Shown: positions 10,384 to 25,614 of the stretch, one piece after another
How the letters are laid out: every line of letters starts with the position of its first letter
How positions within the stretch are numbered: position 1 is the stretch's first letter
DNA from: Candidatus Woesebacteria bacterium
GTDB taxonomy: Bacteria; Patescibacteriota; Microgenomatia; UBA8517
DNA: 64,000 nt
Reading direction: 5' to 3'
Assembly: GCA_020060845.1 (NCBI GenBank)
Contig: JAGUZK010000045.1
Location: 8,685 to 72,684 of the forward strand
Translations under genes and position numbers: made by a program
Notes under the pieces: generated by a model
Seen by the model: the letters and a program-made list of their open reading frames with translations, nothing else
Databases searched by the model: none
What the model was told of the DNA's origin: nothing

Positions 10384-11487
10384 TTAACTTCCAATCTTGA
10401 ATTCGACCACATCCCCATCCCTCATAACATAGTCTCGACCTTCGCTTCTTACCATCCCCTTCTCCCTTGCCCTGACCCAACCTTTCGCTTCTACAAACTT
10501 TTCAAAATCGACAACATCAGCCTTTATAAATTTCTTTTCAAAGTCACTATGGATTACTCCCGCTGCCACGCTTGCTTTTGTACCACTCCTGATAGTCCAT
10601 GCCCTTACCTCTTTTTCTCCAGCTGTCAAAAAAGTTATTAGCCCCAACGTCTTGAAAGCCTTTTTGATAAGCCTTTCAAGACCAGATTCTTTAATCCCTA
10701 TATCAGCCAGATAAGCTCTTTGGTCACTCTCAGATAAACTTGCAAGATCAGATTCAATTTTTGCGCATATTGCAACGACTTGAGACAATTCAAGATTAAA
10801 TTTCTTCGAATATTCAAACTCAATCTTGTTTGCATCGCGAAGATTTGACTCATCAACATTTAGGCAAACTATGATAGGTTTAACAGTAATTAGAGAAAGT
10901 AAATTAGCAACTTTGAGCTCCTTGTCCGATAAAACCATATCACGCACCGGCACACCACGAGACAAAGCATCCTTAAGTTTTGTCACTACTTCCCAAAAAG
11001 ACAGCGCTTCCTTATCTTGGGTATTACCAGGCGATTTTTGCTTCTCTAGCGTTTGAAGGTCTGCAAGCTTAAGCTCCGTCTCAACAGCCTCAAAATCTTC
11101 CTCCGGAGACGCTACTCCCTGTTTGACAACATCCGGATCCGAAAACATCCTTACAACATGGCAGATAGCCGAAGTCTCTCTTATATGCGCTAAAAACCTG
11201 TTACCCAGCCCCTCTCCCTTTGAAGCTCCAGCAATAAGACCTGCTATATCCACAAACTCAACAGTCGCGGGGATTTTGGGAGGCAGGTGGTCCATATTCT
11301 CCGAATCTTTTACCACCTCAGAAAGCTTATCCAACCGCCAATCGGGTACATCAACAATACCAACATTCGGTTCAATTGTAGCAAATGGAAAGTTTGCAAC
11401 ATACGCTTGCTGACGCTTCAAAAGCGCATTAAAAAGCGTTGACTTTCCTACATTTGGCAAACCAACAATTCCGACCGATAGGTTCAT
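10384..11487 (-). CDS. ychF: ribosome-binding ATPase YchF (Obg-family GTPase)
   Basis: G1 motif GIVGLPNVGKSTLFNAL, with C-terminal TGS domain. Confidence 0.9.
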   Translation of the reverse strand: MNLSVGIVGLPNVGKSTLFNALLKRQQAYVANFPFATIEPNVGIVDVPDWRLDKLSEVVKDSENMDHLPPKIPATVEFVDIAGLIAGASKGEGLGNRFLAHIRETSAICHVVRMFSDPDVVKQGVASPEEDFEAVETELKLADLQTLEKQKSPGNTQDKEALSFWEVVTKLKDALSRGVPVRDMVLSDKELKVANLLSLITVKPIIVCLNVDESNLRDANKIEFEYSKKFNLELSQVVAICAKIESDLASLSESDQRAYLADIGIKESGLERLIKKAFKTLGLITFLTAGEKEVRAWTIRSGTKASVAAGVIHSDFEKKFIKADVVDFEKFVEAKGWVRAREKGMVRSEGRDYVMRDGDVVEFKIGS

Positions 11488-13120
11488 GTCCCAACTTTTC
11501 GGTGGAAGTCAGAGCCAGTTGTGGTAGTGGTATGTGACATAAGACTTCTACCTCACTCCTTTCTTTTATAATTACTTTCTCTATTATATCTCGAATGAAG
11601 TTCTTTTTGTCATACAACTTAAGGCTTTTGAGAGTCTTTCTTGCTTCAGCACATAATTCATCAGCCTCAATGTTGACTACTTCGGGTGAGACTCTGGCTT
11701 TTAGCTCCTCTAATTGCCTTTGATATCCCTCTTTCTTTCGTCTGGCTGCCCTTACTAACTCCATATACTGGTCAAACTCCATCACACCTGAACCATAGGC
11801 TTTGGCGTAGCGATTGATTTCTTCTGTCAGTTTGTCGATTTGCTCCTGAATCTTTAATCTCTCTTGGGTATCTGCTGATCGGTTTGCCTGTTCTCGAATC
11901 CATTCCTCAGCGTGCTTTTTAAGGAGCTCTGAATTAGTTAAATGGTTTGTCAATTCTTTCCAGACCAATGCGTCTAAAACTCTGGCATTTACCCCTCCAA
12001 TGTGGCAACGGCGTTGTTCTTTGGGAAAATGGTGTAATCTTTCTTCACAGCGGTAGTAGTAGTGTCCGTTTCTGTTACAACCATCTCCTGCCCTACGGTT
12101 ACCACATCCACACCACAATACCTCTGAGAGAAGATAATCAAACTTTCTGTGCTTCTTAGCATATCTTCGGTTGTATTCCATAATCTCTTGGGCTTTATCG
12201 TATAAAAATCTGTCCTCCATAATTATCGGCACCTTGAAGGGATACCACTCCTCTTTGGGTCGAAGGCGACGGCTATTTTTCTTTACTTTACGATATTTAT
12301 CATTTTTAATCCTAGTTTTAGACTCTACAGCCTCATGCTTATTGTAATAAGCGATTCCTGTCCAGTAGGTTTCGCAACGAAGCATTCTTGTTATCGAACC
12401 TTTCGTCCAAAAATCACTTCTTCTTTTCCTAGGCTTAATACCCAAATCGTATAAACGCCTAATAATACCGTTTATGGATACTCTTTCGATCACAAACCAG
12501 TCAAAAACTAATTTTATTGTCCGTATTTCTTCTTCGTTTCTCTCCCAGTGAGCAGGCGTGGTATCGGTTCTCTTAACATAGTTGTAGCCATACAAGGCAC
12601 TCCCGCTTATGACAACGCCGTTTTTAGCTTTGTAGAGTTTACCTCTCCTGAAGCGCTCGGCTATCTTTACCCTCTCATAATCATGGAAACAGCCCAACAC
12701 ATTTCTCATAAGACCTTGTTCTTCATTTATTGGATTAATATCGTGGAGGGAAATAACTTTGATCCCCGCTTCTTCAAATTCTCTAAGGAGAACAAGCTGA
12801 TATGTAAAATCCCTCGATAGACGACCAATATCATAAACATACAGGACTTGAATTTCCTGTCTTTTAATTGAGTCACGAAGTGCGTCTAAACCTGGTCGAG
12901 CCAACATCGTGCCTGTCCAGCCATTATCAAGAAAGATGTGTTTTTGAGAAAGAATGTTGCCATCAGCTTCAATTCTGCATTTCGTCTCATCAATCTGAGA
13001 TTCTATTGTGGCTTCTTGTTCCTGGCGACCTGTTGAAACTCTAGCATACAAACCCGCAATCAACGATTGCTTAACTCCACCGTTACCTGTATGATTTGTG
13101 TTAGGCAGTAAATCTTCCAT
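11429..13120 (-). CDS. large serine recombinase (resolvase-domain integrase)
   Basis: 563 aa. N-terminal resolvase catalytic domain (YARVSTGRQE...YVYDIGRLSRD), a recombinase domain, Cys-rich zinc-ribbon region (CGCG...C..C) and a coiled-coil. Its last ~59 nt overlap ychF. Confidence 0.85.
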   Translation of the reverse strand: MEDLLPNTNHTGNGGVKQSLIAGLYARVSTGRQEQEATIESQIDETKCRIEADGNILSQKHIFLDNGWTGTMLARPGLDALRDSIKRQEIQVLYVYDIGRLSRDFTYQLVLLREFEEAGIKVISLHDINPINEEQGLMRNVLGCFHDYERVKIAERFRRGKLYKAKNGVVISGSALYGYNYVKRTDTTPAHWERNEEEIRTIKLVFDWFVIERVSINGIIRRLYDLGIKPRKRRSDFWTKGSITRMLRCETYWTGIAYYNKHEAVESKTRIKNDKYRKVKKNSRRLRPKEEWYPFKVPIIMEDRFLYDKAQEIMEYNRRYAKKHRKFDYLLSEVLWCGCGNRRAGDGCNRNGHYYYRCEERLHHFPKEQRRCHIGGVNARVLDALVWKELTNHLTNSELLKKHAEEWIREQANRSADTQERLKIQEQIDKLTEEINRYAKAYGSGVMEFDQYMELVRAARRKKEGYQRQLEELKARVSPEVVNIEADELCAEARKTLKSLKLYDKKNFIRDIIEKVIIKERSEVEVLCHIPLPQLALTSTEKLGHEPIGRNCWFAKCRKVNAF

Positions 13121-13142
13121 AGGTTTATTTGCTTATTAGGGG

Positions 13143-13170
13143 TCTGGCTTCGCTAGCGAAAGACCCCTAA
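13143..13170. repeat. compound palindrome: 8-bp inverted repeat (aggggtct/agacccct) enclosing a perfect 12-nt palindrome (ttcgctagcgaa)
   Basis: Read directly from the sequence. Followed on the + strand by aattttttataa; lies between the HTH gene and the recombinase start. Confidence 0.7.
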
Positions 13171-13180
13171 TTTTTTATAA

Positions 13181-13360
13181 TCAAGTTTTCGTCATAGGCT
13201 TCTCAAATAACTCTGCCAGCTTGACATTGCTGATTCTCCAGGCTTTGCCCAACTTAATAGCTGGCAATTGCCCTCGTCTTGCCATCCGATAAATGGTTAT
13301 CTTGGCAAGTTTGAGCTTTTCAGCTGCTTCGTTTATGGTTAGATATTCCTGGTTTTCCAT
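13181..13360 (-). CDS. excisionase-family HTH DNA-binding protein (AlpA/Xis-like, possible RDF)
   Basis: 59-aa ORF, below the ORF-track length cutoff: MENQEYLTINEAAEKLKLAKITIYRMARRGQLPAIKLGKAWRISNVKLAELFEKPMTKT. HTH pattern typical of the excisionase/MerR-like family. Confidence 0.55.
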   Translation of the reverse strand: MENQEYLTINEAAEKLKLAKITIYRMARRGQLPAIKLGKAWRISNVKLAELFEKPMTKT

Positions 13361-13394
13361 AAGGCTAATTGATATTGTTTGATATACTTACACA

Positions 13395-13619
13395 CTACCC
13401 AGAGGTTCTCTGTAAGTCAAGTGTGATCGTTAATGCTCCTTTATCCATCTTTTGTCTTTCTATAATATTCTGTCTTGCCAATGTAAAAAGGCGGTCATAA
13501 ACTAGTTTTAAGCGCTCGGCACTCTCTGGTTTATCCGCATAAATAAAGCTGATGTTAGGTGGCATTATCCTTCTCATGTTCGTATTTGGCATATTTCCCT
13601 GCGCCAATTTTCTTGTCAT
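13395..13619 (-). CDS. hypothetical small protein
   Basis: 74-aa ORF that overlaps the next ORF upstream; may be spurious or use an alternative start. Confidence 0.25.
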   Translation of the reverse strand: MTRKLAQGNMPNTNMRRIMPPNISFIYADKPESAERLKLVYDRLFTLARQNIIERQKMDKGALTITLDLQRTSG

Positions 13620-14169
13620 TCCAGTCCTTTATTACTTCACTGATTCTCTTACCCAATTCTTTTTCTTCTGGAGTCAGAGGTTTTTGCTCTATCTCTTCGA
13701 TGTAGTTCTTTGAAACTTCATATTTCCCAACAGATTCGCCCCACTCGATTCTTGTCATCTCCCAAAGCTGCCGAACTTCCTGGACAGTAGCTGGTTGACC
13801 TGCTTGCATCTGCTTTTTTAAAGCTTGAAGTTTGTTCCAAAACATCTCGGTGATAAGATAGGCTCTCTTTTGCCGAATCTGAGTTGTTTTCTTCTTAAGC
13901 ACCTCCAAATCTTCTGCTAATTTCTTATCTGCCCGCTCAACCCAGTGATATTTGACTGACCAGCGCTCTATTGTCCTTTCCGAGGGTAAATCGCCAAGTC
14001 TAGAGCCAAAAATCACCGACAACTCTCCTGCTGAACTCCGACTTATTTGTTGCCATGCCTGGATTAGTTTTGAGACGCTGCCAACTTCGCAATACAGCAA
14101 GAACGCCGAATATTGTTTCTCTGACTCCCCAGGCATTTTTGATGTTGTAAGTTTCTTTATCTTTTCCAT
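13555..14169 (-). CDS. hypothetical protein (phage-like module)
   Basis: 204 aa, helical and charged; no recognisable domain. Confidence 0.4.
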   Translation of the reverse strand: MEKIKKLTTSKMPGESEKQYSAFLLYCEVGSVSKLIQAWQQISRSSAGELSVIFGSRLGDLPSERTIERWSVKYHWVERADKKLAEDLEVLKKKTTQIRQKRAYLITEMFWNKLQALKKQMQAGQPATVQEVRQLWEMTRIEWGESVGKYEVSKNYIEEIEQKPLTPEEKELGKRISEVIKDWNDKKIGAGKYAKYEHEKDNAT

Positions 14170-14172
14170 AGG

Positions 14173-14541
14173 TTATTTTGCTTTTAGCATCGGCTTGCCA
14201 AGTTTCTTATAGATTCCTTCTCTAATTTTCTGCATTTGCTCTGGTGATAGCGGAATATAAGGTGCTTCAGTTGCTCGTTCTGGCAATTGCTTGGTATTTT
14301 TCAAAAATCTGCTTTTTCTATAAAACTCGGCGATATAAGGAATTGGTATTGCAAAGGAGTTAAAAACAATCGCTCCTCGCTCTCCTCTAGCTAGTGCTTC
14401 TTGAACAATTCGAGCCTGATTCTTACTTAGTTCGTATTCTCCCTTTGTGCTCATAATGACAACCCAAATCTCCTCATAATCTTCCTCATTAAATGCCAAG
14501 TTATTTGATATTTCTGGCATCGATGCCTCGTTTGCTGACAT
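14173..14541 (-). CDS. hypothetical protein
   Basis: 122-aa ORF tightly packed with its neighbours. Confidence 0.4.
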   Translation of the reverse strand: MSANEASMPEISNNLAFNEEDYEEIWVVIMSTKGEYELSKNQARIVQEALARGERGAIVFNSFAIPIPYIAEFYRKSRFLKNTKQLPERATEAPYIPLSPEQMQKIREGIYKKLGKPMLKAK

Positions 14542-15229
14542 GTTCGCTCGCCTCCTTTCTAATTTTTAATGCGTCACTTTTGACAAAATTCCTTAAAGCA
14601 GCCAGATAATTTTTATAGCGTTTGCCGTGTGCCTCGCAGTAATTAACCAGGCTGTCATAGCAACTCCTCACAAACGCCAGGGAAACTTGATAATCCTGGG
14701 CTACTTGCTGAAATTCATCTTCACCAAGACTGCTAATATCGGAATACTTTCCTTTAAGGGAGATTAAGTCTTTCTCTTTACTTGTGTTTATTTCTCTTTC
14801 AGTATCTGAAGAAATCTCTGAAGTATTATCTGAATTATATTGCTGATTTTCTGCAAATAGATTTGCTGAATCTCTACAAATTAAATTGCTGATTTTCTGC
14901 AAATTGAGCTTAAAGTGCCTTTTGGGAGGAACTCCTTTGAGTTCGACTTTCATTAAATTCAATCTCTTTATCTTTTTAATCGCACCTTCCTGTTCACTCC
15001 TTGATAGAGCAGTTTCTTCCTTAATTTCGTCAATAGTTTTATAAATTGATTCTGGGTCGTGTCCCTTTCCCCACCAATACAAAAGTTGTGAAAGTAGCAA
15101 CCCAGCCTTAACCGATCCTGTCAGTTTTGCCAATACTGGATTAAACGCTATTGGCTTAACGCTCAAAACTTCAAGAAGTTTCTTGTTGTAATTTATGTTT
15201 CTAGTCCTATTTTTATCCTGCTCTTCCAT
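14501..15229 (-). CDS. putative replication initiation/replisome-organizer protein (DnaD-like N-terminal winged helix)
   Basis: 242 aa. The N-terminal segment LAKLTGSVKAGLLLSQLLYWW...SRSEQEGAIKKIKRLNLM resembles phage replisome-organizer/DnaD N-terminal domains. This is a low-confidence family call. Confidence 0.35.
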   Translation of the reverse strand: MEEQDKNRTRNINYNKKLLEVLSVKPIAFNPVLAKLTGSVKAGLLLSQLLYWWGKGHDPESIYKTIDEIKEETALSRSEQEGAIKKIKRLNLMKVELKGVPPKRHFKLNLQKISNLICRDSANLFAENQQYNSDNTSEISSDTEREINTSKEKDLISLKGKYSDISSLGEDEFQQVAQDYQVSLAFVRSCYDSLVNYCEAHGKRYKNYLAALRNFVKSDALKIRKEASEHVSKRGIDARNIK

Positions 15230-15231
15230 AG

Positions 15232-15522
15232 TTATTTTTCCTGATACAATTTTTGCTTTAAATCTCGAATCACTGTTACCGCTCGTCTGAAATCAACGAG
15301 GCAACTGGGTGAATTTTCTGGCGCAAAATTGAAGGACTGGAGAAGTTCTTTTCGTTCTGGAGAATCTTTTAAGATAAAAACAGACCGCTTGGGATTAGAA
15401 GATGGTTCAACGCCTATAAGGTCAAAGCCTTTGAGGATTAAAAAGGCAACAGTATAGAAGCTGCCACATTTCCATTGTTTATCTTTATTGCGTTTTTCCA
15501 TATTGATTCTCCTTTGAGTCAT
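15232..15522 (-). CDS. hypothetical protein
   Basis: 96-aa ORF, first gene of the minus-strand phage-like block. Confidence 0.4.
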   Translation of the reverse strand: MTQRRINMEKRNKDKQWKCGSFYTVAFLILKGFDLIGVEPSSNPKRSVFILKDSPERKELLQSFNFAPENSPSCLVDFRRAVTVIRDLKQKLYQEK

Positions 15523-15789
15523 AAAAAAAGGGACTCTGTCTTGAGTCCCTATCTTGCTGGGAACACGCCGTAACCGCAGAAGTCGCAGTTACATCATGCT
15601 ATCTTTTCTGGAAAATCAATCAGGGGTGTTGCTTTCGAATAAAGTCGGAGGTGTGGCTGTCGTGCTATCGTTTCAATCCTAAGTCTTTTCAAGACTTTTC
15701 TTATATTATAAGTGTATATAGTCCTGAACCTCTTGTCAAGATTAAAAATGTAGTAAGATTATCTCCAAATTGATACAATATAAGTATAA

Positions 15790-15930
15790 AGCCTAAACCC
15801 GCAAGGGCATGGCTAAGAAAACCCATCACAGGCGGTAAGCTCCTCGTCAGAGCACCTGTGATGGGTCATATCCCGAAAGGGGTATGGGTAGCCGAAAGGC
15901 TATCGCTGGCGGGGAGCTTTTTGTTTGATT
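15790..15930 (+). ncRNA. candidate structured RNA / origin-like element
   Basis: + strand carries three GNRA-capped hairpins: cccGCAAggg (15798-15807), cccGAAAggg (15872-15881) and tagccGAAAggcta (15889-15902). A 12-bp perfect inverted repeat (acccatcacagg at 15821-15832, cctgtgatgggt at 15855-15866) is also present. A possible pseudoknot pairs gctcc (15839-15843) with ggagc (15913-15917), followed by a T-run. Confidence 0.3.
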
Positions 15931-15977
15931 TGACAATCTCCCCCAAGCGAAGTTAACATAGCCAACCATATCAAAAT

Positions 15978-16646
15978 ATGACAATAAAGATGAAAAATAA
16001 GGCTCGTATAGTCGTCCCGATCTTGTTTATTGCCCTTTTACTGCTTGCTGGTAGCTTATTTTGGTATAAGTCGTTTCAGGACAGGTTTGCTCCTCCTCGT
16101 AAAGACGCTCCTATGGTTAAGTTTCGAGTTGACAAACAAAACACTCTCATGGCTGTTACTGGCAATCTTCACTACTACGGTTTTGTCAAAGATGAGGAAG
16201 CACTTAAATATGCGCTTTTACATACCAAAGACAATAAGCTTGGCAAAGAAGGGGCGATCAAAGTTGGTAATAACACCATCGACACTGAGACCGCTTACGA
16301 TATTTCCCAATCGATGAGTGCTTGGGAGATAGCCAGAATTCTTCTCAATGAAGGCACACCAAGTATCAGAGATTGTGATCATGGTTGTGAGGAATATAAC
16401 CCTTTTACGCCAGCCATTTTGCCTGGTGGTGATATTGCTCCCACCTGGAAAGAACAAATGCAGGCAAAGTATAGCTGGGTAAAAAACTTTGATGATTGCC
16501 TTAAAGCCATCGGGCATGATGGCGGTCAAGTTACCAGCGAGGAGGCTTCTAAACGCACTGGTCATCCCAGGGTTTGTAATACCGCCGATGGTCGTTATTT
16601 TATTCAAGGAAAAGAAGGCTGGACTGATTATCCGCCTTATCCCTAA
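15978..16646 (+). CDS. hypothetical secreted/membrane-anchored protein
   Basis: 222 aa with an N-terminal TM/signal sequence (IVVPILFIALLLLAGSLFWY) and Cys-containing C-terminal domain. Confidence 0.5.
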   Translation: MTIKMKNKARIVVPILFIALLLLAGSLFWYKSFQDRFAPPRKDAPMVKFRVDKQNTLMAVTGNLHYYGFVKDEEALKYALLHTKDNKLGKEGAIKVGNNTIDTETAYDISQSMSAWEIARILLNEGTPSIRDCDHGCEEYNPFTPAILPGGDIAPTWKEQMQAKYSWVKNFDDCLKAIGHDGGQVTSEEASKRTGHPRVCNTADGRYFIQGKEGWTDYPPYP

Positions 16647-16655
16647 AGAAAGGAG

Positions 16656-17384
16656 GTGAAAAATATGAAGACTAAAATTATTATCGCTTTGGTTGTTCTT
16701 GTTCTCCTAGGAGCTTTAGTTTGGTGGAAAAAAGGCAGCAACTTACCAATACCTAATGTGACTACTAACAAAGAGACAGACTCTAAGACTGTTGAGATGG
16801 CTGCCATTAGGACATTTATGGCAGATCCTAATTTAGAATTCTCATTTGTTAATACTGACCTACCGATGCCATATTTTAGGGTTGGTAAGATTACTAAAAC
16901 CAAAGATGGAGAAAATATGGAGGCGGTTGAGAGATGGACAAGGAAAGTCAATGTCTATGAGGATACAAAACCATTAAATAATTCATGCGCCGTTTATCAA
17001 TATCATGTCGATCCTAAAAGCCATACCTTAACCCAAGCTGTAATAAGAAGCTTGCATCAAGATGAAATTGAAGCTCTCAAACAAAAAGGTACTCCTTGTG
17101 TATCAGTTGATCCTTTTGAAAACGCACCAGAATTAACTAAAGAAGAAGCTCAAAAGATTGCTTTTGGTTATTTAAGCCATGCCTTACCTAACTTTGAGGA
17201 GATTAAAGACCAATTTGTTTATTCTCAAGATCAAAAAGCTCACACCTGGCTTTGGGAAGATAAAAGTTATCAGTTACCAGAAGGATTAGAAGGAAGACCA
17301 TATTCCTATCCAATTATCCGCCTAACCGTTTATAGTCCTGGGCAGATTTTGTATTGGAACACTGTCCCGTTGTTTGAGAACTAA
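16656..17384 (+). CDS. hypothetical secreted protein
   Basis: 242 aa with an N-terminal signal/TM and a strong SD (aggaggtg) 8 nt upstream; 9-nt gap from previous gene. Confidence 0.5.
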   Translation: MKNMKTKIIIALVVLVLLGALVWWKKGSNLPIPNVTTNKETDSKTVEMAAIRTFMADPNLEFSFVNTDLPMPYFRVGKITKTKDGENMEAVERWTRKVNVYEDTKPLNNSCAVYQYHVDPKSHTLTQAVIRSLHQDEIEALKQKGTPCVSVDPFENAPELTKEEAQKIAFGYLSHALPNFEEIKDQFVYSQDQKAHTWLWEDKSYQLPEGLEGRPYSYPIIRLTVYSPGQILYWNTVPLFEN

Positions 17385-17506: not shown

Positions 17507-20500
17507 TTATTTAATTCCTTTCTTCATAAGCTGGATGTTTTCATCTGCCCTTTGTTCCTCAAATTTAATGTTGTCATCTAAATACTTTTCATAGCCCTTA
17601 ATAAAAATCTGTAGGGTTGGATTCTTATCTTCCTTCCAGGGTTGAATCTCATCTTTTTTTCGCTTGTAGGCATCCTTCACTCCGTATTCTCCTGTTACTA
17701 CTCCTGTTTGAGAAAGAATGATAAACATTTCGCTTCGATATTCCCTATATAATTTGTTGCCTGTGTTTTGAAGAAATTTCTTAATGAAAGCCTTTGATAC
17801 TTCGTGGAGAAACGGTTCGCCTTTATAAGCTCTCAAAATTGAAAGAACTAAAAGTGCGTTGCGTTTACCACCCTGTTTTATTAAATCTAAAAGATAAGTT
17901 TCTAGCTTGCCGTTAAAAGAGGGAAAAATTGCTCTCAATAGATTACTTGCCTCAAAATGATACAGCCAATCTTTTTCCGAGAACCATTTTAATATCTCTG
18001 TAATTACGACTTTCTCAGATTGAGCCAAGTCTTCCCGAATTTCATGAAAATCTAGTGGAATAGCATCATATCTGTAGCGTTCTTGTGTTTTTAGATGATG
18101 AGTAACTCTCTCAAAGAAGAAACCTATTACTTTTTGAGGATATTTTTTTATAATTGGTTTTAAGATTTCTTCGACATGATAATCCACAGAAGAGTGGAGA
18201 ATTAAACTTTTTAGCACGGTATTGTAATCTTGACTCTTAAATGTCTCCAAAAGAGAATAATCTCTTACCCACAATCTTGTTGCCCAACTATCATCCTTGA
18301 TTTTAATTAACTCCTGCAGTGTTAAGATGAATATTTGCTTAAGTTGATTAGAATCACTATGCTTTTCCATGCAAACACGCAGGATGTTAAACATAGCATT
18401 TTTGTCTTTTGATCCAATTACCTTCTTAAATATCAGATTAAGCAGATCTAAATCTAGAGTATCGGTGTAGGTGAACAAATAACTCAACACAAAAAGGTGC
18501 CTACCTCTTTTTGACCATTCGATCGCCAACTTCTTAGCTAGGGGTTTTTTGCTACTTTCCCATATACCAGCCAGTAAGTGGATAAGGAAAAACTTCATTT
18601 CTTTTTCGTGTTTTGTCAGCAGTTCAATTGCAAATTCTGGTTTATCTTTACCCAGCCTGTGCAGGAAGATATTGAAGTATTGAAACTTGCCAGCATCCAC
18701 ATCTGTATATTCCTTGGCAATAGAGATAATCCTGTTTAACCATTCCTTCCGAGTTTCATCATTGATATTCTGAATAAACTTATTGATCTTGTTTTCTCGT
18801 TGTTCTTTTGCTTTTTTCCAATCCAATTCCTCATCAAACTTATAATCGTAGCCAAAAAAGACTTTGAACATGTTGTATTCTTTATCTGAAGCTATTCTTG
18901 TTTCTAACTCGCTTATCTTAGGAAGTCTATCCTTACCGTATCTTTTAACAAACCAGTGTGCCTGTTCTTCAATCTCTTTAATAAGTTGAGCATCGCTATC
19001 TGGAAATATCGACAAATAAAACTCTATAATTTTATTTGTATCATTTACTACTAAATCTTCTAACTCCTTGCTGTAATTACCTCTACTTGGCGTCCTAGTC
19101 GCCTCGTTTAATGACAGAAGTATTTCTTTTCTAACTTGAACATCTTTTGAGCTTGTATAAAGTTTCTTTAAGATTTCTATTGTGCGTCCCCTTATTTTTT
19201 GAAGTAATTCTGATGGCTTGAGAGAACCAAACGAAATTGTAAATGTCTTATAGTCAGACATTGAATGACCTTCATATTCTGGGTTTAACAACTCTTTGGC
19301 TATTATGTTAATTACTTCTTGATTTTTTATTTTTTTGCTATCGCTCCACTTTTCTAGTTCATCCAAGGTAGTGCCTTGAGCTAGATAACCAATATACTTT
19401 AAGGCATAAAGGTTATATTCAACTAAGGATTTAATCGCTTCGATTGCTTTTTTCCTATACTCTTCTTTCTCGGCAAGGTGCGTAAGCAAATCCAAAACTT
19501 CTTTAGGTTTGTGATATCTTACCTCTTTCAAGAGATCAATAACTTTAAGAATTACATCTTGATTCGATTTTCCCTTAAACTTCCCAAGTTTGCTTTTATA
19601 TTCTTTCTGGGGAAGGGGTTTTGCGTTTATGAGAGCCTTAGAAATCTTAATAACCTGGTCTGGAACTCGGAATGCGTATTGTTCAAGTATCTCTAAATTG
19701 GCACAAATATCATCATTGTTAGTCGGAGTTTTTGTAATAAAATTAAGTAATCCTATTGACTCTTTTTGTAAGAATTTGGTTGCCTGTTCTGTCTTAGCAA
19801 GTTGTTCTCGTATACGAGCCTTTTCCTCTTTCGAATCAAAGAAGCTATCTATATGCTCAGGTGAGGTATCGCTAATCAGTTCGAGGAGAGACTCCATGCC
19901 TATTTGTTCATTTTCAACAAGATACAAATTGGGTGTGCTGATAATTATCTCCTTATCTAATAATTTTTGGATAATTACGGTAATTTCTTCTTCTGATACT
20001 CTTAATATCTTGCTAAATATGGCAGCCACTTTTCCTTTAGGTATGGCTCTAATAAGATAAAGAAGCCCTACGCATTTAACTGTATTTTCTTCAAATGATC
20101 TCGCTAGGTCTGTTAGCGACTCACTCAACTCACGATAACTTTGACTCTTTGCAAATTGCTGCCATCGTCCATTTAGCTCACTGGAGTTATCTCCAATTTC
20201 CCTACCTGTCAAGTCAAGTGTCCTTCCTTTTGTGTCCGAGTGGAGTTTTAAGGATTTTTTTGTTTTCTCATCAAAAAAGAACCAATATGTTTTTTGAGCG
20301 GTTGTATCCACAACAAAAAGTAGGGTTGGAACACTGGAGTTAACAAGATAATCTATAACTGACCGCTTGCAGAAGTATTTGTTGTTCTTAATAGATTTTT
20401 TACTCTTTTGTTGGTAGTGGAGGTATTTCTCTAAATATCTTCCCCTGCCGTCCCTTAGGCGGATTTCTCCGTCAATATCTGGAGTTTTACCGTTAAACGG

Positions 20501-20590
20501 ATTTACTGAAAAATATGACTCGTCGAGAGAGGTCTGAAGAATTTTGCTACCCTTTTCATCAATCGTGTCTTGTTGAGTATATTTGCTCAT
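17507..20590 (-). CDS. large protein: DUF4365-like PD-(D/E)xK N-terminal domain + long alpha-helical (HEAT-like) repeat region; last gene of the Type III R-M operon
   Basis: 1027 aa. The N-terminal ~130 aa (PDIDGEIRLRDG...YLHYQQKS) match my recollection of the DUF4365 nuclease-fold pattern (DxD...QxK). The rest is helical with no NTPase motif. It starts 7 nt downstream of res. Confidence 0.6.
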   Translation of the reverse strand: MSKYTQQDTIDEKGSKILQTSLDESYFSVNPFNGKTPDIDGEIRLRDGRGRYLEKYLHYQQKSKKSIKNNKYFCKRSVIDYLVNSSVPTLLFVVDTTAQKTYWFFFDEKTKKSLKLHSDTKGRTLDLTGREIGDNSSELNGRWQQFAKSQSYRELSESLTDLARSFEENTVKCVGLLYLIRAIPKGKVAAIFSKILRVSEEEITVIIQKLLDKEIIISTPNLYLVENEQIGMESLLELISDTSPEHIDSFFDSKEEKARIREQLAKTEQATKFLQKESIGLLNFITKTPTNNDDICANLEILEQYAFRVPDQVIKISKALINAKPLPQKEYKSKLGKFKGKSNQDVILKVIDLLKEVRYHKPKEVLDLLTHLAEKEEYRKKAIEAIKSLVEYNLYALKYIGYLAQGTTLDELEKWSDSKKIKNQEVINIIAKELLNPEYEGHSMSDYKTFTISFGSLKPSELLQKIRGRTIEILKKLYTSSKDVQVRKEILLSLNEATRTPSRGNYSKELEDLVVNDTNKIIEFYLSIFPDSDAQLIKEIEEQAHWFVKRYGKDRLPKISELETRIASDKEYNMFKVFFGYDYKFDEELDWKKAKEQRENKINKFIQNINDETRKEWLNRIISIAKEYTDVDAGKFQYFNIFLHRLGKDKPEFAIELLTKHEKEMKFFLIHLLAGIWESSKKPLAKKLAIEWSKRGRHLFVLSYLFTYTDTLDLDLLNLIFKKVIGSKDKNAMFNILRVCMEKHSDSNQLKQIFILTLQELIKIKDDSWATRLWVRDYSLLETFKSQDYNTVLKSLILHSSVDYHVEEILKPIIKKYPQKVIGFFFERVTHHLKTQERYRYDAIPLDFHEIREDLAQSEKVVITEILKWFSEKDWLYHFEASNLLRAIFPSFNGKLETYLLDLIKQGGKRNALLVLSILRAYKGEPFLHEVSKAFIKKFLQNTGNKLYREYRSEMFIILSQTGVVTGEYGVKDAYKRKKDEIQPWKEDKNPTLQIFIKGYEKYLDDNIKFEEQRADENIQLMKKGIK

Positions 20591-20597
20591 TTCTCAT

Positions 20598-22916
20598 TCA
20601 ATTGACTGTATATGCGCTACTGATAATAGCGTCAAAACTGTTAATTCTGTTTACTGCCGTATGGGGCAAGAGTTTATAGATCCACTTCTTCTTAGTCGCT
20701 TCAGAGGCTATCTTGCACCATTCTTCTGCCTGCTTTGCCTTTTCCAAAACCTCTGGGTCTTTTTTGTCGAGTTTGCTTTTGTCTTTTACTTCTACCAAGT
20801 AATTGGCATCTTTTCTCTCGACAATAAAATCTGGGTTATAGTTGCCGTAAATATACTTAATTGGTAGTTGTCCGTTTCTAAGCCTTACCCAACTAATAAC
20901 TGTTTTGTCTTTCTCTAAGGAATCTGCTAGTAGTTTCTCTTGTGTCGAATCAAAAACATAAGCAGGGTAAACACTTTTGTTATAACCCTCGATGATATTG
21001 CCTCTAGACTCAGTTTCGCTTACTTCGTCTTTATTTAATGGCACTGCTGAGGCTTTTACCACTTTCATGTATGGCTCAAAAGGAATTTCTTCATCCACCA
21101 CTTGATACTCAATCCTTGTTTGCTCATCCAGCTTTTCTCGCAGCTGGGGTAAGATATCATTCAGAATTGTCTGCTCATGCAGTTTTACGAGTTCCGATAG
21201 TTCTTTCCCTTTAACTTGAAGTTGATCGAGATAATGTTTAACTAATCTTTGCAAGACAGCCTTGAAAGAAATATCAAATTCAGACATCTCAAGTAGAATG
21301 AGTCTAACAATCCTATTAACTGGATTAATTTCTTCCTTTACTTCGATGTCTCCTGCTTCTTCTGTTTGCCTGGAAACAATATCTGCTTTAATAAGTTTTG
21401 GTTTAATTTTCTTTAACTCCTCTAGGCGCAACTTTATTGGAAAGAACTCCAATTTATTGCTTGAATATACTCTTGCTTCAACAGATGGAATTTTAATCCA
21501 AAGTTTTTTGTTTTCAATTGGCTTAATTTCAACTGTTTTTAATTCCTCTTTCTTTTCTGCCTTTTTAACCCCAAGCCCTTCTGCTACTTCATGGGCAACT
21601 GCCACCACTCTGGCAAAATTGTCGTGAGAGATAATATCCAGGGAATCCAGCTCTTCAACGCCCGTTAGCTCGCCAAAGGGCAATCTAAGCCCCCTACCAA
21701 TGGTTTGCTCGATAAGAGTCCTACTGATTGAGGCCCTGAAGGGGATGATGGTATAGACATTTTTAACATCCCAGCCTTCTTTGAGTTTGTCCACATGAAT
21801 GACAATCTCATTTTTATTAACTGGGAATGGTTCTTCTAAACGGAGCAGTTGATGAATAGAGTCAACTTCACTTTCGCTAGTTACCAATAGTGTTTTATCC
21901 TTGTAATAGCCATCAAAGAAATCGTCACTTTCAACCATTGTTTTAACATCTTTGGCGTGTTGGATGTTTCTAGTCGTTATAAGGGTGATGGGCAATACAA
22001 AGGGGAGTTTGTTATTTTTACAGTATTCTTCGATTAAAGCCTTCTTTTCTCTGTGCCTTCTTATTCCATCCTCAAGTTTGACTAGTTCGAGGTCGCCTTT
22101 ATAGGTATAGTCATCGCTTCGAGCTATGACATAAGGAATTTTGATGTAACCGCCTTTAGCGCCGTTACCGTCATGTAAGCTCGCCAAAGCCTTTTTAGAA
22201 TCGTTTATAGCGTCTGCCAGTGTATAAGAATAGACAACATTGTTCTCGTTGGCTGGTGTAGCCGTGAACTCCAGTCCTAGTTCTGGTTTCAGATGGTTTA
22301 TTGCCTTGATTGACTTTACCCCTCGATAACGGTGACTTTCATCCATTAAAATAACTAGATCTTTTTGTTGGAGAAGTTCAGCAAAGCTCGATCCTAGAGT
22401 TTCTTGATAGCGGTGAAATCTAAACTCAACATCAGTTCGTTCATTGAAAATCTTTTGGATGTTGAAGACATAAATGTTAACCGCATCAAAAAGCTGGTTG
22501 CCAAAGTTAGCGTAGGTGTAATTTTCACCTGTGATTAAATTAAACATCGGAAAGTCGGTTAAACCGTCTAGGACATATTTTTTACTCGAAGGAGTAAAGT
22601 TGTCGATTGTTTTTGTATAAATTGTTTCTCCTGGAGTTAGAATAAAGAAATCTTTTAATCCCTTCGTGTAGTAAAGATAAGCGATCATTGCAGCCATTAG
22701 CCTGGTTTTGCCCACGCCTGTTGCTAGCGCAAATGTGAATGAAGGAAATTCAGTATCAAATTTGATATTACCAACTAATCTTGCCTCAATATCTTCAAGT
22801 TTATCTTTGCCGAGCTTTATTCCTGAGATGATTGAGTCAAGTTTAACAAGAGAAAGTTCTTGAGGCTTTCTTAAACTTAATTCCTTAGTTAATTTTTCGA
22901 TAATGTTCATACTCAT
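20598..22916 (-). CDS. res: Type III restriction enzyme Res subunit
   Basis: 772 aa. SF2 helicase motifs (ATGVGKTR, DEAH-like MDESHRY) and a C-terminal PD-(D/E)xK motif (PDFIV...LVEVKD). Confidence 0.85.
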   Translation of the reverse strand: MSMNIIEKLTKELSLRKPQELSLVKLDSIISGIKLGKDKLEDIEARLVGNIKFDTEFPSFTFALATGVGKTRLMAAMIAYLYYTKGLKDFFILTPGETIYTKTIDNFTPSSKKYVLDGLTDFPMFNLITGENYTYANFGNQLFDAVNIYVFNIQKIFNERTDVEFRFHRYQETLGSSFAELLQQKDLVILMDESHRYRGVKSIKAINHLKPELGLEFTATPANENNVVYSYTLADAINDSKKALASLHDGNGAKGGYIKIPYVIARSDDYTYKGDLELVKLEDGIRRHREKKALIEEYCKNNKLPFVLPITLITTRNIQHAKDVKTMVESDDFFDGYYKDKTLLVTSESEVDSIHQLLRLEEPFPVNKNEIVIHVDKLKEGWDVKNVYTIIPFRASISRTLIEQTIGRGLRLPFGELTGVEELDSLDIISHDNFARVVAVAHEVAEGLGVKKAEKKEELKTVEIKPIENKKLWIKIPSVEARVYSSNKLEFFPIKLRLEELKKIKPKLIKADIVSRQTEEAGDIEVKEEINPVNRIVRLILLEMSEFDISFKAVLQRLVKHYLDQLQVKGKELSELVKLHEQTILNDILPQLREKLDEQTRIEYQVVDEEIPFEPYMKVVKASAVPLNKDEVSETESRGNIIEGYNKSVYPAYVFDSTQEKLLADSLEKDKTVISWVRLRNGQLPIKYIYGNYNPDFIVERKDANYLVEVKDKSKLDKKDPEVLEKAKQAEEWCKIASEATKKKWIYKLLPHTAVNRINSFDAIISSAYTVN

Positions 22917-24580
22917 ACTTTAAACTTTTTTAATAAAACATCGGGAATTTTTCTAACTTCGACATTTTCTGGTAACTTAATTTTACTTGATATTGTTTTG
23001 GCATAGATAATAAGATAATCAGCTTTGTCGCCAACTTCTCGCACTATAGCATTTACATAATCCTGACTAAGATATTGTTCAGTTACATGGGCGATAGTTC
23101 TTCCTGAAATACCATGTAGGGCATTATCTGGATTAAGGAGTTTGAACCCTTCAACTTTCAGAACTGCCCGAATAAGATCTCCGTTGTAGACCTTTGGATT
23201 TAGAACCGTTAGCCTCAAATCATCATCGGCTACAAATAGACTGTCTCCCAGCTCAAAATATTTGAAACCGCCCCCACCTTTCCATCCAACTTCTTTACTG
23301 ATACCGCTTTGATCTTCTCCTGAAATCACTCTTTTCAAGCGGGGGATGATATGAGTTTTTGCATGCTCACCCAACTCTACCATTATCCATTTCCTACCCA
23401 TCTTATGAGCTACTGCACCCGTTGTGCCTGAACCTGCAAAACTATCCAAAACAATATCTCCTGGTTTTGTAGCCAATTCTATAATTAATTTGATTAAAGC
23501 CTCTGGTTTTTTGCTCTGCTTAAACTCAACTCCTCCTTCAAGGTGAAGAGCTGCATTTGGGAATTTCCATATGTTCGAAAGTCGCTGTTTTTTGATCAGT
23601 GTTCCATCTTTCTTTTTTTCAACAACTTCTTTTAACCAGGCGACTATACGCCCATTTAGAAAGTAAGTCTTGATAAGTTGCCCTGCATATTTTCCTTTTG
23701 TCGGGATATATTCGATGTAAGACAGTCCTTTTTGGGGTATCTCTGGTCGAATTTGTAAAATTGTCCCACCGCTTGGGTTATAGTCAGCAAAAACATTGTT
23801 AAAATGCTTGTAATAATCATCTATAGAGTCGCTCGTCCTAAACTTCTTGATCTCGTAATTCTCACATTTATATATCTTAATTTCTCCGATATTCAATCTT
23901 TGAATTGTTTTGATAAGTTTTGACTTGCCTGGATTTAATAAGGCTTTGTTATATCCTTTGACAAAACCTTCTATCTCCACTTCTGTCATCGTTTGTAAAG
24001 TACCTTCTTCTCTAAGAAGTTTATAGTCCTTGGCATAAACAAGGATGTATTCACTAACATCAAAAATTAAACTTTGTTGTCCTACTCCAGCCACATCTTT
24101 TACCTGAACTGTAATAAAGGATACAAAATTATCATCTCCAAACTTTTCATCCATAATCATTTTCAATCGAGCGAATTCCCTGGAATCAATATGCACAAAT
24201 ATAAGACCCCTTTTATTTAACAGTTTATGAAGTAAGTCGATTCTATCCCTCATCATTGTCAGCCAAATAGAGTGTTCTAAACCGTCATCATAAAATTCAA
24301 AAGCAGCACCAGTATTAAATGGGGGATCGATATAGATAAGTTTTATCTTTCCTTCATAATCGGGAAGAAGGGCTTTTAACGCTAAAAGATTGTCTCCTTT
24401 TATTAAGATGTTTTCTGTATTTTTATCACCATAGACTGCTTTCTCTAGAAGAATGCGAGGCTCTGAGACCCTGGGGTCTTTTTTATCTACCCATTGATAT
24501 TTTTTCTTTTCAGGATCATAGTAAAGACTTTTGTCTTTGTTATACCAGGTTAATTCTAATTTTTTACTTTTTTGAGACAT
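22913..24580 (-). CDS. mod: Type III DNA methyltransferase Mod subunit (N6-adenine)
   Basis: 555 aa with motif IV IYIDPPFNTG and a SAM-binding region; overlaps res by 4 nt. Confidence 0.85.
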   Translation of the reverse strand: MSQKSKKLELTWYNKDKSLYYDPEKKKYQWVDKKDPRVSEPRILLEKAVYGDKNTENILIKGDNLLALKALLPDYEGKIKLIYIDPPFNTGAAFEFYDDGLEHSIWLTMMRDRIDLLHKLLNKRGLIFVHIDSREFARLKMIMDEKFGDDNFVSFITVQVKDVAGVGQQSLIFDVSEYILVYAKDYKLLREEGTLQTMTEVEIEGFVKGYNKALLNPGKSKLIKTIQRLNIGEIKIYKCENYEIKKFRTSDSIDDYYKHFNNVFADYNPSGGTILQIRPEIPQKGLSYIEYIPTKGKYAGQLIKTYFLNGRIVAWLKEVVEKKKDGTLIKKQRLSNIWKFPNAALHLEGGVEFKQSKKPEALIKLIIELATKPGDIVLDSFAGSGTTGAVAHKMGRKWIMVELGEHAKTHIIPRLKRVISGEDQSGISKEVGWKGGGGFKYFELGDSLFVADDDLRLTVLNPKVYNGDLIRAVLKVEGFKLLNPDNALHGISGRTIAHVTEQYLSQDYVNAIVREVGDKADYLIIYAKTISSKIKLPENVEVRKIPDVLLKKFKV

Positions 24581-24581
24581 A

Positions 24582-25421
24582 TCAATCTTTTACTAAACTT
24601 AATGTTTTAACAAAATCAATGAATTTATAACCAAACTCTGTAAGGAATTCTACTTTGCTAGCACCTGAACCAATACCACCATCTTTTACTCCTACTCTAA
24701 ATATTCCAAGAGATAGAAGCTCACTTGATATTTCAGCATATTGGTTTTGTTTCTTCCGTTCTTCTTCAAACTGTGCCTTACTTAGGTTCTTGTCTTGGGA
24801 GATATTGGGAATTCTTGATTTAACAATCTCGCTATTAGGATTAAATTCTTCATAAATCCAGTGCATGATAACCTCAGAGTCTGGTTTCTGTCTCATAGTA
24901 AGTTCTTCCCACCACTCAACACTACCTTCATGCTTTCCTTTCATCTTAGCTACTTCTTCCTTTGCCCATTTTTCTTTCCTAGGGATAATAACCTCAGATA
25001 TAAACTTTAAATACTCAAGAGATTCTAATGAAATTTCCTGAGCCACTCGATAAAACCTTTCTAGATTTATTAGATGCCTATCTTCTGCTGAAACATAACC
25101 ATCTAGATAAATTTGCTGTATGAGTTTTCTTTTCTTTATTTCTCTGGTTCTTATTAATGCTTCAAAAGTTATTGCTAATGACTGTTGAAATTCTTGAGAG
25201 CTTAATATTTCTTCCTTAAGTTGGGGAACATGTTTTTTTAATAGATTCCAAAATTCTTTACCTTCATCTGGATATAAGTCAAAAAAAGACCAAACTGCAA
25301 CTTTGCAAAAAAATAAAGATCCTCTCGTGTAAGGATTAGGAGGAAGATTTTTCTCTATTTCATCCATTAAAGCTAAAAAAGTATTTTTTGTCACAGCTTT
25401 CAATGTTTTAGATATTTTCAT
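24582..25421 (-). CDS. hypothetical protein (operon member, unknown function)
   Basis: 279 aa, translationally coupled (1-nt gap to mod, 4-nt overlap with HTH gene). Confidence 0.5.
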   Translation of the reverse strand: MKISKTLKAVTKNTFLALMDEIEKNLPPNPYTRGSLFFCKVAVWSFFDLYPDEGKEFWNLLKKHVPQLKEEILSSQEFQQSLAITFEALIRTREIKKRKLIQQIYLDGYVSAEDRHLINLERFYRVAQEISLESLEYLKFISEVIIPRKEKWAKEEVAKMKGKHEGSVEWWEELTMRQKPDSEVIMHWIYEEFNPNSEIVKSRIPNISQDKNLSKAQFEEERKKQNQYAEISSELLSLGIFRVGVKDGGIGSGASKVEFLTEFGYKFIDFVKTLSLVKD

Positions 25422-25612
25422 TTTTTCTTTTTATTTAAAAAGATTTTTATTTTGTTAGGATCATATCTTCTATCTCCTCGTTTATTAATTCTAACAGCCT
25501 TGAGTTTGCCATCCTTATCCCATCTGCGTAAGGTTTCGGCATGCACATTTAAGATTTCTGCTGCTTGTTTTATGGTTAGGAGTTTTGGTAAATCAAATTT
25601 ATTTTTACTCAT
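25418..25612 (-). CDS. excisionase-family HTH DNA-binding protein
   Basis: 64 aa: LTIKQAAEILNVHAETLRRWDKDGKLKAVRI. Confidence 0.55.
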   Translation of the reverse strand: MSKNKFDLPKLLTIKQAAEILNVHAETLRRWDKDGKLKAVRINKRGDRRYDPNKIKIFLNKKKK

Positions 25613-25614
25613 AT

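Follow-up and report, generated by a model that had tools for sequence, protein, structure and literature searches.

Introduction

Satellite phage P4 uses CI RNA, and P1 uses c4 RNA, in place of a protein repressor, and at the level of structure the tetraloop-receptor architecture occurs in c-di-GMP-I riboswitches. Here we describe a member of a further family, the LOOT RNAs, encoded in a 64,000-nucleotide (nt) stretch of DNA from a Candidatus Woesebacteria bacterium (assembly GCA_020060845.1, contig JAGUZK010000045.1, positions 8,685 to 72,684, forward strand), referred to below as the window. The LOOT motif comes from Weinberg et al. (2017, Nucleic Acids Research 45:10811; PMC5737381), where it is confined to the supplement; it is listed in Rfam as RF03000 under the class "Gene; sRNA", and the CaCoFold paper counts six helices in it with ~43 base pairs. 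The literature that mentions LOOT, namely the main text of the 2017 paper, the two Rfam papers (Rfam 14 and Rfam 15), and the CaCoFold paper, assigns it no function. To the Rfam model, which served as the standard of comparison in place of the 2017 supplement, we add a tail helix with a U-rich tract, a promoter and 5' leader, a gene order divergent from integrase genes, and a leader-like layout.

Results

The window encodes a full-length LOOT RNA

The starting point was an original prediction, made from the sequence, of a highly structured intergenic segment at 15790-15930 that could not be matched confidently to any family and for which a scan with Infernal cmscan was proposed as a check. Scanning the whole window against Rfam 15 gives a sole match, to RF03000, at 15790-15904 on the + strand, with a score of 85.7 bits against a gathering score of 46.4 and E = 8.7e-15. 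The match covers model positions 1-121 of 121 and is seen on the + strand only, so that a family can be named after all: the segment is a member of the known LOOT family, and nothing disqualifies it from membership. The three GNRA-capped hairpins and the perfect 12-bp inverted repeat that had been picked out in the segment are all present (Table 1), and on the Rfam alignment they fall into place as helices of the model, with cccGCAAggg as the inner hairpin of P1 (P1a), the 12-bp stem as P2, cccGAAAggg as P3, and tagccGAAAggcta as P4. All RF03000 helices (P1, P1a, P2 with its inner helix, P3, and P4) can form in the window with canonical or G.U pairs, the inner P2 helix being 4 bp only, and the conserved LOOT blocks are found as CCUAAaC at 15792-98, GCAUGG at 15807-12, and the GAAA loop of P3 at 15875-78.

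A permissive scan of 15300-16300 (E <= 1) returned, beyond LOOT, just one match, to the group I intron model on the - strand, which at 16.8 bits against a gathering score of 50 (E = 0.14) is at chance level and was rejected. No GEMM, other riboswitch, or ribozyme model appeared at E <= 1 in that scan.

Relatives of the window RNA are found mostly in Patescibacteria

A blastn search of 15690-15980 against plasmid and phage collections gave no match, and relatives were collected by pattern searches. A loose pattern, CCTAAACC..GGGCATGG, recovered mostly chance matches and group II introns, with LOOT accounting for 10 of 120 loci; a stricter pattern identified at least 119 metagenome contigs. LOOT is rare in IMG/VR, where one contig carries the strict pattern. 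Twenty-seven of the relatives were re-scanned with Rfam and all are LOOT, at 60-100 bits. The relatives (~110) derive mostly from metagenomes of Patescibacteria, also called the candidate phyla radiation (CPR), and in named genomes LOOT is present in Parcubacteria, Gottesmanbacteria, Saccharibacteria, Paceibacterota, Minisyncoccales, and other Patescibacteria; two further LOOT contigs from metagenome-assembled genomes are probably misbinned.

From these we built an alignment, using MAFFT, of 111 full-length sequences including the window, on which the pairing and covariation figures for the helices are based. The search pattern fixed CCTAAACC, GGGCATGG, and the GAAA of P3, and the conservation of those blocks is therefore read from the Rfam consensus and not from this alignment. 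Canonical pairs fill 87.9% of pair cells in the 111 sequences, as against 70.5% after column shuffling and at most 51.9% in slid controls. Covariation analysis of homologues, which the original prediction had put forward as a further check, gives a score of 0.498, compared with 0.200 in shuffles and at most 0.138 in slid controls. P3 is paired in 96.7% of cells with changes on both sides in 8 of 8 pairs, and its GAAA loop is in upper case in the Rfam consensus; P2 varies with many compensatory changes, close relatives included; and P4 is capped in the relatives by GAAA, GCAA, GUAA, or GCGA. Few of the unpaired nucleotides are conserved.

Folding of the + strand gives -63.4 kcal/mol (z = -5.2 relative to dinucleotide shuffles); this, the full-length Rfam match, and the pairing in the homologues put the structure well outside what chance would produce. 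The - strand folds about equally well, as inverted repeats must, and folding energy therefore does not choose the strand. What does is the occurrence of GNRA loops, conserved G.U pairs, and the covariance-model match on the + strand only, which identify it as the RNA strand and bear out the earlier view of a structured RNA read in that direction.

A long-range helix joins the top of P2 to the 3' tail

It had been noticed that the loop gctcctc (15839-15845) is complementary to ggggagc (15911-15917), with TTTTT (15918-15922) next to it, and a pseudoknot had been suggested as possible. Loop, complement, and T-run are all present, and the pairing is longer than first described: the repeat finder extends it to 15837-15850 with 15906-15919, 14 pairs including G.U. 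Taken alone, the helix 15838-50 / 15906-18 is paired in 89.0% of cells, compared with 74.4% in shuffles and at most 60% in slid controls, a level reached in 0 of 500 shuffles; its 9-bp core is paired in 94.4% of cells. Changes on both sides occur at 13 of 13 pairs. One pair, for example, is CG in 46 sequences and UA in 46, and another is CG in 48, GC in 24, UG in 16, UA in 10, and AU in 9. This support is as good as that for P3, and the possible pseudoknot has become a conserved helix of 13-14 bp. At two of its positions U.G is the conserved pair, and this assigns the RNA to the + strand. The 5' strand lies in the apical loop of P2, so that the helix crosses P2 and forms a pseudoknot; because the Rfam model stops at 15904, short of the 3' strand, the helix is not part of RF03000.

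The long-range helix has a competitor in the local hairpin at the apex of P2. The two overlap in 111 of the 111 sequences and are mutually incompatible, and in median energy the long-range duplex is at -25.6 kcal/mol and the local hairpin at -4.9 kcal/mol. To the eye, in an uncounted comparison, the local hairpin also varies in a compensatory manner (CUGAAC/GUUCAG, CUGAUC/GAUCAG, CCAAAC/GUUUGG), and it is probably a real, transient state.

These features bear on the proposal that the segment acts as DNA (a replication origin, packaging site, attachment (att) site, or operator array) or as a small self-cleaving ribozyme, of which the origin, packaging, and ribozyme versions had been among the original candidates. 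The segment does contain inverted repeats, and it sits in a mobile element beside replication and TerS-like genes; its compact, pseudoknotted fold also resembles that of many small ribozymes. However, G.U pairs are conserved and GNRA loops occur on one strand only, and the helices are kept by compensatory changes and not by sequence. There is no family of direct repeats (iterons) in 15790-15930, the only repeats being the inverted ones that correspond to RNA helices; an iteron array, mentioned earlier as a competing explanation, is thus not found, an origin or packaging site gains no positive support, and the att site is elsewhere (see below). Against a ribozyme stand the lack of any ribozyme family model at E <= 1 and the scarcity of conserved unpaired nucleotides. 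We consider this the least probable of the explanations discussed here and give it hardly any weight.

Table 1. Positions of the LOOT RNA, its helices, and flanking features in the window.
Feature	Position	Strand	Description
LOOT promoter	15771-15779	+	Predicted extended -10, TGaTACAAT (TGATACAAT); hexamer TACAAT at 15774-15779
LOOT core	15790-15904	+	Helices P1, P1a, P2 with apical part, P3, and P4; RF03000 by cmscan
P1	15790-93 / 15811-14	+	Encloses internal loop UAAA 15794-97 / CAU 15808-10 and P1a
P1a hairpin	15798-15807	+	cccGCAAggg; GCAA loop
P2	15821-32 / 15855-66	+	Perfect 12-bp stem with 22-nt apical region; repeat finder
P2 apical region	15837-15850 (strand X)	+	Strand X and weak local hairpin GCUC / GAGC; local hairpin is the Rfam inner helix
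P3 hairpin	15867-15886	+	8 bp; cccGAAAggg at 15872-15881; GAAA loop at 15875-78
P4 hairpin	15887-15904	+	7 bp; tagccGAAAggcta at 15889-15902; GNRA loop is GAAA at 15894-97
Strand Y	15906-15919	+	3' strand of long-range helix; partner 15837-15850
U-rich tract	15918-15927	+	UUUUUGUUUG; directly after long-range helix; predicted 3' end of ~140-nt RNA
Post-LOOT block	15928-15959	+	-35 TTGACA at 15930-35, 18-nt spacer, -10 TAACAT at 15954-59; promoter scan
Two secreted/membrane protein genes	15978-17384	+	Co-oriented with LOOT; variable cargo position
Leftward operon	11429-15522	-	DUF5659, Rep (O-like / DnaD-like), 122-aa ORF, TerS-like, HTH_17 excisionase-like, large serine recombinase; Pfam and PHROGs
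Large serine recombinase	11429-13120	-	Stop within first codons of ychF

P1 resembles a tetraloop receptor

The most conserved letters of the Rfam consensus are CCUAAaC and GCAUGG, which face each other over the internal loop of P1. The canonical 11-nt receptor for GAAA tetraloops is given as CCUAAG / UAUGG (PMC2615604, PMC11381326), and the P1 module CCUAAA / CAUGG agrees with it at 9 of 11 positions; the closing G.U pair of the canonical receptor is A/C in LOOT. The P1 internal loop of LOOT thus resembles the receptors of group I and group II introns and c-di-GMP-I riboswitches, and an invariant GAAA loop is available as a candidate partner. That loop is likely to be the one on P3, which is conserved as GAAA, whereas the P4 loop is variable among GNRA sequences, and we would expect the two to dock.

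The original prediction had remarked on a weak likeness to the 'gcctaaacc' element of GEMM RNAs. That sequence is one half of the receptor-like module; no GEMM model matches at E <= 1, and the likeness reflects a shared tertiary building block and not family membership. As an unplanned control, the loose pattern also recovered group II introns of Clostridia/Lachnospiraceae in which the LOOT P1 module, of the form ACC-UAAA-hairpin-CAU-GGU, is present about 2 kb upstream of domain V, the region in which domain I carries its tetraloop receptor; group II intron loci with this P1-like module are L125, L129, L136 (462-488), L157, L201, L202, and L220.

The RNA has a candidate promoter and a terminator-like 3' end

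The predicted extended -10 element upstream of LOOT (Table 1) would place the transcription start at about 15784-15788, near 15786. In the subfamily to which the window belongs, the -10 box reads TGnTAnAAT in 8 of 11 members and ends ~10 nt before P1; the third position of the hexamer varies (C/G/A/T) and TA..AT is kept. In most of the other relatives the box is TATAAT-like, and 5-8 nt after it begins a conserved leader, ACAAYTNAAT, which lies 10-16 nt ahead of P1. The leader (ACAAYUNAAU in the RNA) lies upstream of LOOT in 67 of 116 relatives, including L287, L274, and L282, and is absent from most members of the window subfamily.

At the other end, the long-range helix runs directly into the U-rich tract, and at least 6 T residues are present within 8 nt after the helix in 71 of 108 relatives. 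Where the tract is poor, as in CUUAGUGUU, some relatives have an additional terminator of canonical form 15-30 nt beyond it. In the window the features of a terminator are a 14-pair stem and UUUUUGUUU, both conserved, in an arrangement where the stem is long-range and pseudoknotted; a consensus scan makes no call here, a simple terminator scan missing the LOOT end because the stem is long-range. We take intrinsic termination at the U-tract to be the probable outcome. As in intrinsic terminators and pseudoknot platforms of the preQ1-I type, a G+C-rich helix (13-14 bp) ends at a U-tract; LOOT differs from ordinary intrinsic terminators in that the 5' strand of the helix is 55 nt upstream, inside the loop of another helix, and in that the helix encloses two hairpins.

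Downstream genes are close, varied, and sometimes served by their own promoter

A same-strand open reading frame (ORF) begins within 400 nt downstream of LOOT in 94 of 95 loci, at a median of 45.5 nt from the end of the helix. The families encoded there vary, and include N6/N4 methylases, an Eco57I-type / type IIG restriction-modification (R-M) enzyme, T5orf172, zinc-ribbon membrane proteins, and a DnaJ-trypsin fusion. A sigma-70-like site lies between LOOT and the next ORF in 18 of 94 loci, 12-13 of which belong to the window subfamily. For most relatives, where the next gene is close and no promoter is recognizable, expression of that gene would require read-through, and LOOT would there probably be a leader and attenuator as well.

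In the window itself the post-LOOT block (Table 1) would give the two secreted-protein genes a promoter of their own, possibly with an operator. In the form GATTTGAC..TCCCC..AAGCGAAGTTAACAT it is nearly invariant in 11 of 11 subfamily members regardless of cargo, being shared with L169, L253, L264, L279, L280, L307, L327, L337, L348, and L350; it also contains a GTTAAC palindrome, and the -10 is either TAACAT or TAATAT. This is more conservation than a plain promoter needs, so that the block may also serve as an operator. Within its spacer, CTCCCC (15938-43) is complementary to GGGGAG of strand Y. Members of this subfamily differ in the P2, P3, and P4 stems by many compensatory changes and have almost identical promoters; stems that are maintained by compensation even where the downstream gene has its own promoter argue that the RNA itself is under selection, with a role beyond gating the next gene. 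With a conserved promoter following LOOT, a free ~140-nt RNA is most likely the main product here. The earlier suggestion of a cis-regulatory RNA accordingly survives as a live option for the family at large and becomes less likely in the window, where that promoter stands between LOOT and the next gene.

Two further features occur in subsets of loci. The P2 5' strand recurs as an exact copy of 9-17 nt, placed 0-5 nt from the downstream start codon, in 11 of 96 loci, compared with no more than 1 in controls (L255, L259, L260, L272, L295, L329, L246, L281, L308, L328, and L239); the gene is often a methylase or R-M gene, and the copy tracks P2 between loci. By folding, the P2 3' strand can pair with either P2 5'-strand copy in these loci. 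In one subtype, by eye and in predicted folds, the tail can pair with a segment after the U-tract, as in CUGGCGG..CCGCCAG, with matching changes in L349, L334, L255, and L354; tested over the whole family, such pairing reaches p <= 0.05 in 14% of loci and has no overall significance. The two features suggest that helices exchange partners when transcripts read through, and neither is evident in the window.

It is here that a riboswitch-like explanation, also raised in the original prediction, has to be weighed: LOOT would be a cis leader that senses a ligand or factor, terminating transcription once its tetraloop is docked and its pseudoknot formed, and reading into the cargo when an alternative fold forms, with control of the ribosome-binding site as well in some relatives. 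The layout of promoter, structured RNA, helix with U-tract, and ORF is what such a leader would have, and no promoter was found before the ORF in ~80% of loci; the helices that exclude each other (local versus long-range, and tail versus downstream segment in a subset), the copies of P2 near start codons, and the architecture in common with c-di-GMP-I riboswitches all agree with it. Yet genes as heterogeneous as methylases, an R-M enzyme, and membrane proteins follow no ligand logic, and a balanced switch is not obvious when the long-range helix is ~20 kcal/mol more stable than its competitor. The tail-downstream pairing lacks significance family-wide, the strength of the U-tract shows no correlation with the distance to the next ORF, the element is bypassed in the window by a conserved promoter, and no known riboswitch model matches. 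A riboswitch-like leader is in our estimation doubtful.

LOOT lies in the control region of an integrated island

LOOT had been placed between divergent units, and this holds, with a - strand operon on the left that ends at 15522 and + strand ORFs on the right from 15978 (Table 1). The recombinase ORF at the far end of the operon ends 59 nt inside the start of ychF (11429-11487), on the same strand and in a different frame, from which it follows that the island is inserted at the 5' end of ychF and that the operon reads into that gene. No junction repeat was found in the window. From ~30 kb on, the sequence is ordinary chromosome (guaA, cysS, dnaX, hisS). On this gene content the element is a small integrated island, satellite- or prophage-like, and LOOT occupies its divergent control region.

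The two secreted-protein genes matched no family in the Pfam and PHROGs scans among others. Convergent with them, on the - strand, is cargo at 17507-27420 that looks like a defense cluster: a 1027-aa DUF4365 protein, type III Res and Mod, a 279-aa protein without assignment, and a 601-aa S26 signal-peptidase / CAP-domain protein. Just one other record contains exactly this recombinase, a Logan SRR7867194 contig (L360) with the same island backbone, LOOT, and the two secreted-protein genes, followed by a gene with a NucS_C domain where the window (17507-20590) has the DUF4365 protein, a difference that suggests exchange of cargo at this point.

Upstream of the leftward operon there appears to be a leader of ~180 nt (15501-15739, - strand) with a promoter-like site made up of TTGACA at 15739-34 and either TACACT at 15716-11 or TATAAT at 15710-05. 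It contains a strong hairpin and a terminator-like hairpin (15550-15529) with U7 just before the Shine-Dalgarno (SD) sequence and start codon of the DUF5659 gene; a segment at 15620-10 is complementary to the SD region at 15512-02, and the motif GAAAnGAUAGCAyGA occurs twice. This leader may be an attenuator for the replication, excision, and recombinase genes. A repeat search found no meaningful repeat or complementarity between LOOT and the leftward leader.

The association with a recombinase extends to the relatives, in nearly all of which LOOT is divergent from an integrase operon, most often that of a large serine recombinase. When ORFs within 4 kb of LOOT were clustered over 124 loci, a serine recombinase cluster was present in 57 of them, and in 40 of the 55 loci with at least 3 kb of upstream sequence. 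The recombinase is upstream of LOOT in 58 of 59 occurrences and on the LOOT strand in 0 of 59; the gap between the two is often 65-190 bp, and otherwise 1-4 co-oriented genes intervene (DUF5659, primase/helicase-type, and others). One locus has a tyrosine integrase in the recombinase position and another an HTH / M78-peptidase regulator. A tRNA gene abuts the recombinase 3' end in two genome loci (L145 and L198). We had considered the inverted repeat at the LOOT 3' end as an att site, and rejected it; the island junction is at the recombinase 3' end inside ychF, with tRNA genes at the corresponding place in L145 and L198.

So close a positional link, with LOOT often just 65-190 bp from the start of the recombinase gene, invites the idea that LOOT is an RNA partner of the large serine recombinase, for instance in controlling the direction or the activity of integration and excision. 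This we regard as very improbable. Some loci have no serine recombinase nearby and one has a tyrosine integrase in its stead, and the att site is found away from LOOT, where the recombinase gene ends. Serine integrases recognize att sites through protein domains, moreover, and their known directionality factors are proteins, which speaks against a role for RNA.

The same gene order lends itself to another explanation, in which LOOT is a trans-acting, immunity-like RNA that holds down the divergent replication, excision, and recombinase operon. LOOT is located where the gene for a master repressor would sit, divergent from Rep, TerS-like, Xis-like, and integrase genes; integrase and LOOT are the most constant pair over very different elements, with the tyrosine integrase taking the same position at one locus; the leftward leader with its terminator-like hairpin would be a plausible control point; and LOOT keeps its structure even in loci where it is uncoupled from the gene that follows. 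In being a small structured RNA in the control region of an element, LOOT is like P4 CI, P1/P7 c4, HK022 put, and Bacillus EAR, a likeness of position and logic only, as it has neither sequence nor structure similarity to them nor a match to them in Rfam. Unlike those immunity and leader RNAs, LOOT neither overlaps nor complements the operon that it might control, and no complementarity to the leftward leader was found. Folded LOOT is nearly fully paired, which leaves little seed sequence, RNAs with tertiary structure are unusual as base-pairing regulators, and the P4/P1 analogy is one of position. An immunity-like role is consequently unlikely, if slightly less so than a riboswitch-like leader.

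Discussion

The reading that we favor, and to which we would give somewhat better than an even chance, is that LOOT is an RNA gene with its own promoter whose pseudoknot helix doubles as the terminator stem, positioned in the control region of the island where it gates rightward transcription. The RNA would be transcribed rightward from its extended -10 promoter and would fold into P1 with its receptor-type module, the long P2, the GNRA hairpins P3 and P4, and the long-range helix that links the apex of P2 with the 3' tail. Forming this helix would displace the weak local hairpin, and completion of the fold would probably end the transcript, yielding a compact RNA of ~140 nt. In the window, the half of the tail that is transcribed first has most of its predicted partners in the loop left open by the local hairpin, and the helix could zip as polymerase reaches the U-tract. 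Placed back to back with the promoter of the replication/excision/recombinase operon, LOOT would head a short rightward cargo unit and act as a built-in gate or insulator for transcription in that direction. The released, folded RNA may in addition have a role in trans within the maintenance module of the island.

Several points weigh against this reading. The local hairpin that Rfam models must be displaced, and the two states may alternate in a manner that is not understood; it is unusual for a terminator stem to have two hairpins inside it and to cross a further helix; and where the transcript starts and ends, and that it terminates there, are all deduced from sequence. The promoter consensus may not hold for Patescibacteria, which makes the lack of a promoter before the next gene weak evidence. 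In about one quarter of the loci whose flanks are long enough, no serine recombinase lies within 4 kb, and our analysis yielded no target, ligand, or protein partner for LOOT.

A more specific version of this gating role can be put forward tentatively, and we give it well under an even chance. LOOT would be a new kind of control RNA of mobile elements, one whose docked and pseudoknotted fold is the terminator, such that completion of the fold picks between the ~140-nt RNA and read-through into defense or exclusion cargo, and partner-swapping helices, namely those of the tail with a downstream segment and of the P2 copy at the start codon, may join in this choice. If this is true, the integrative elements of Patescibacteria would share a widespread switch, one that possibly senses an element-encoded or host factor.

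For the annotation of the window, the segment is explained as a member of a known RNA family, and readings of it as a riboswitch, ribozyme, or origin are unsupported. The mobile elements of Patescibacteria are almost unstudied, and LOOT is one of many "orphan" structured RNAs to emerge from comparative genomics in 2017. Its consistent integrase-proximal position in integrative islands and prophage-like elements, mainly those of Patescibacteria, its 3' end in which a pseudoknot would be the terminator, and the close and variable defense and membrane cargo that follows it make LOOT a testable part of the control of integrative elements.

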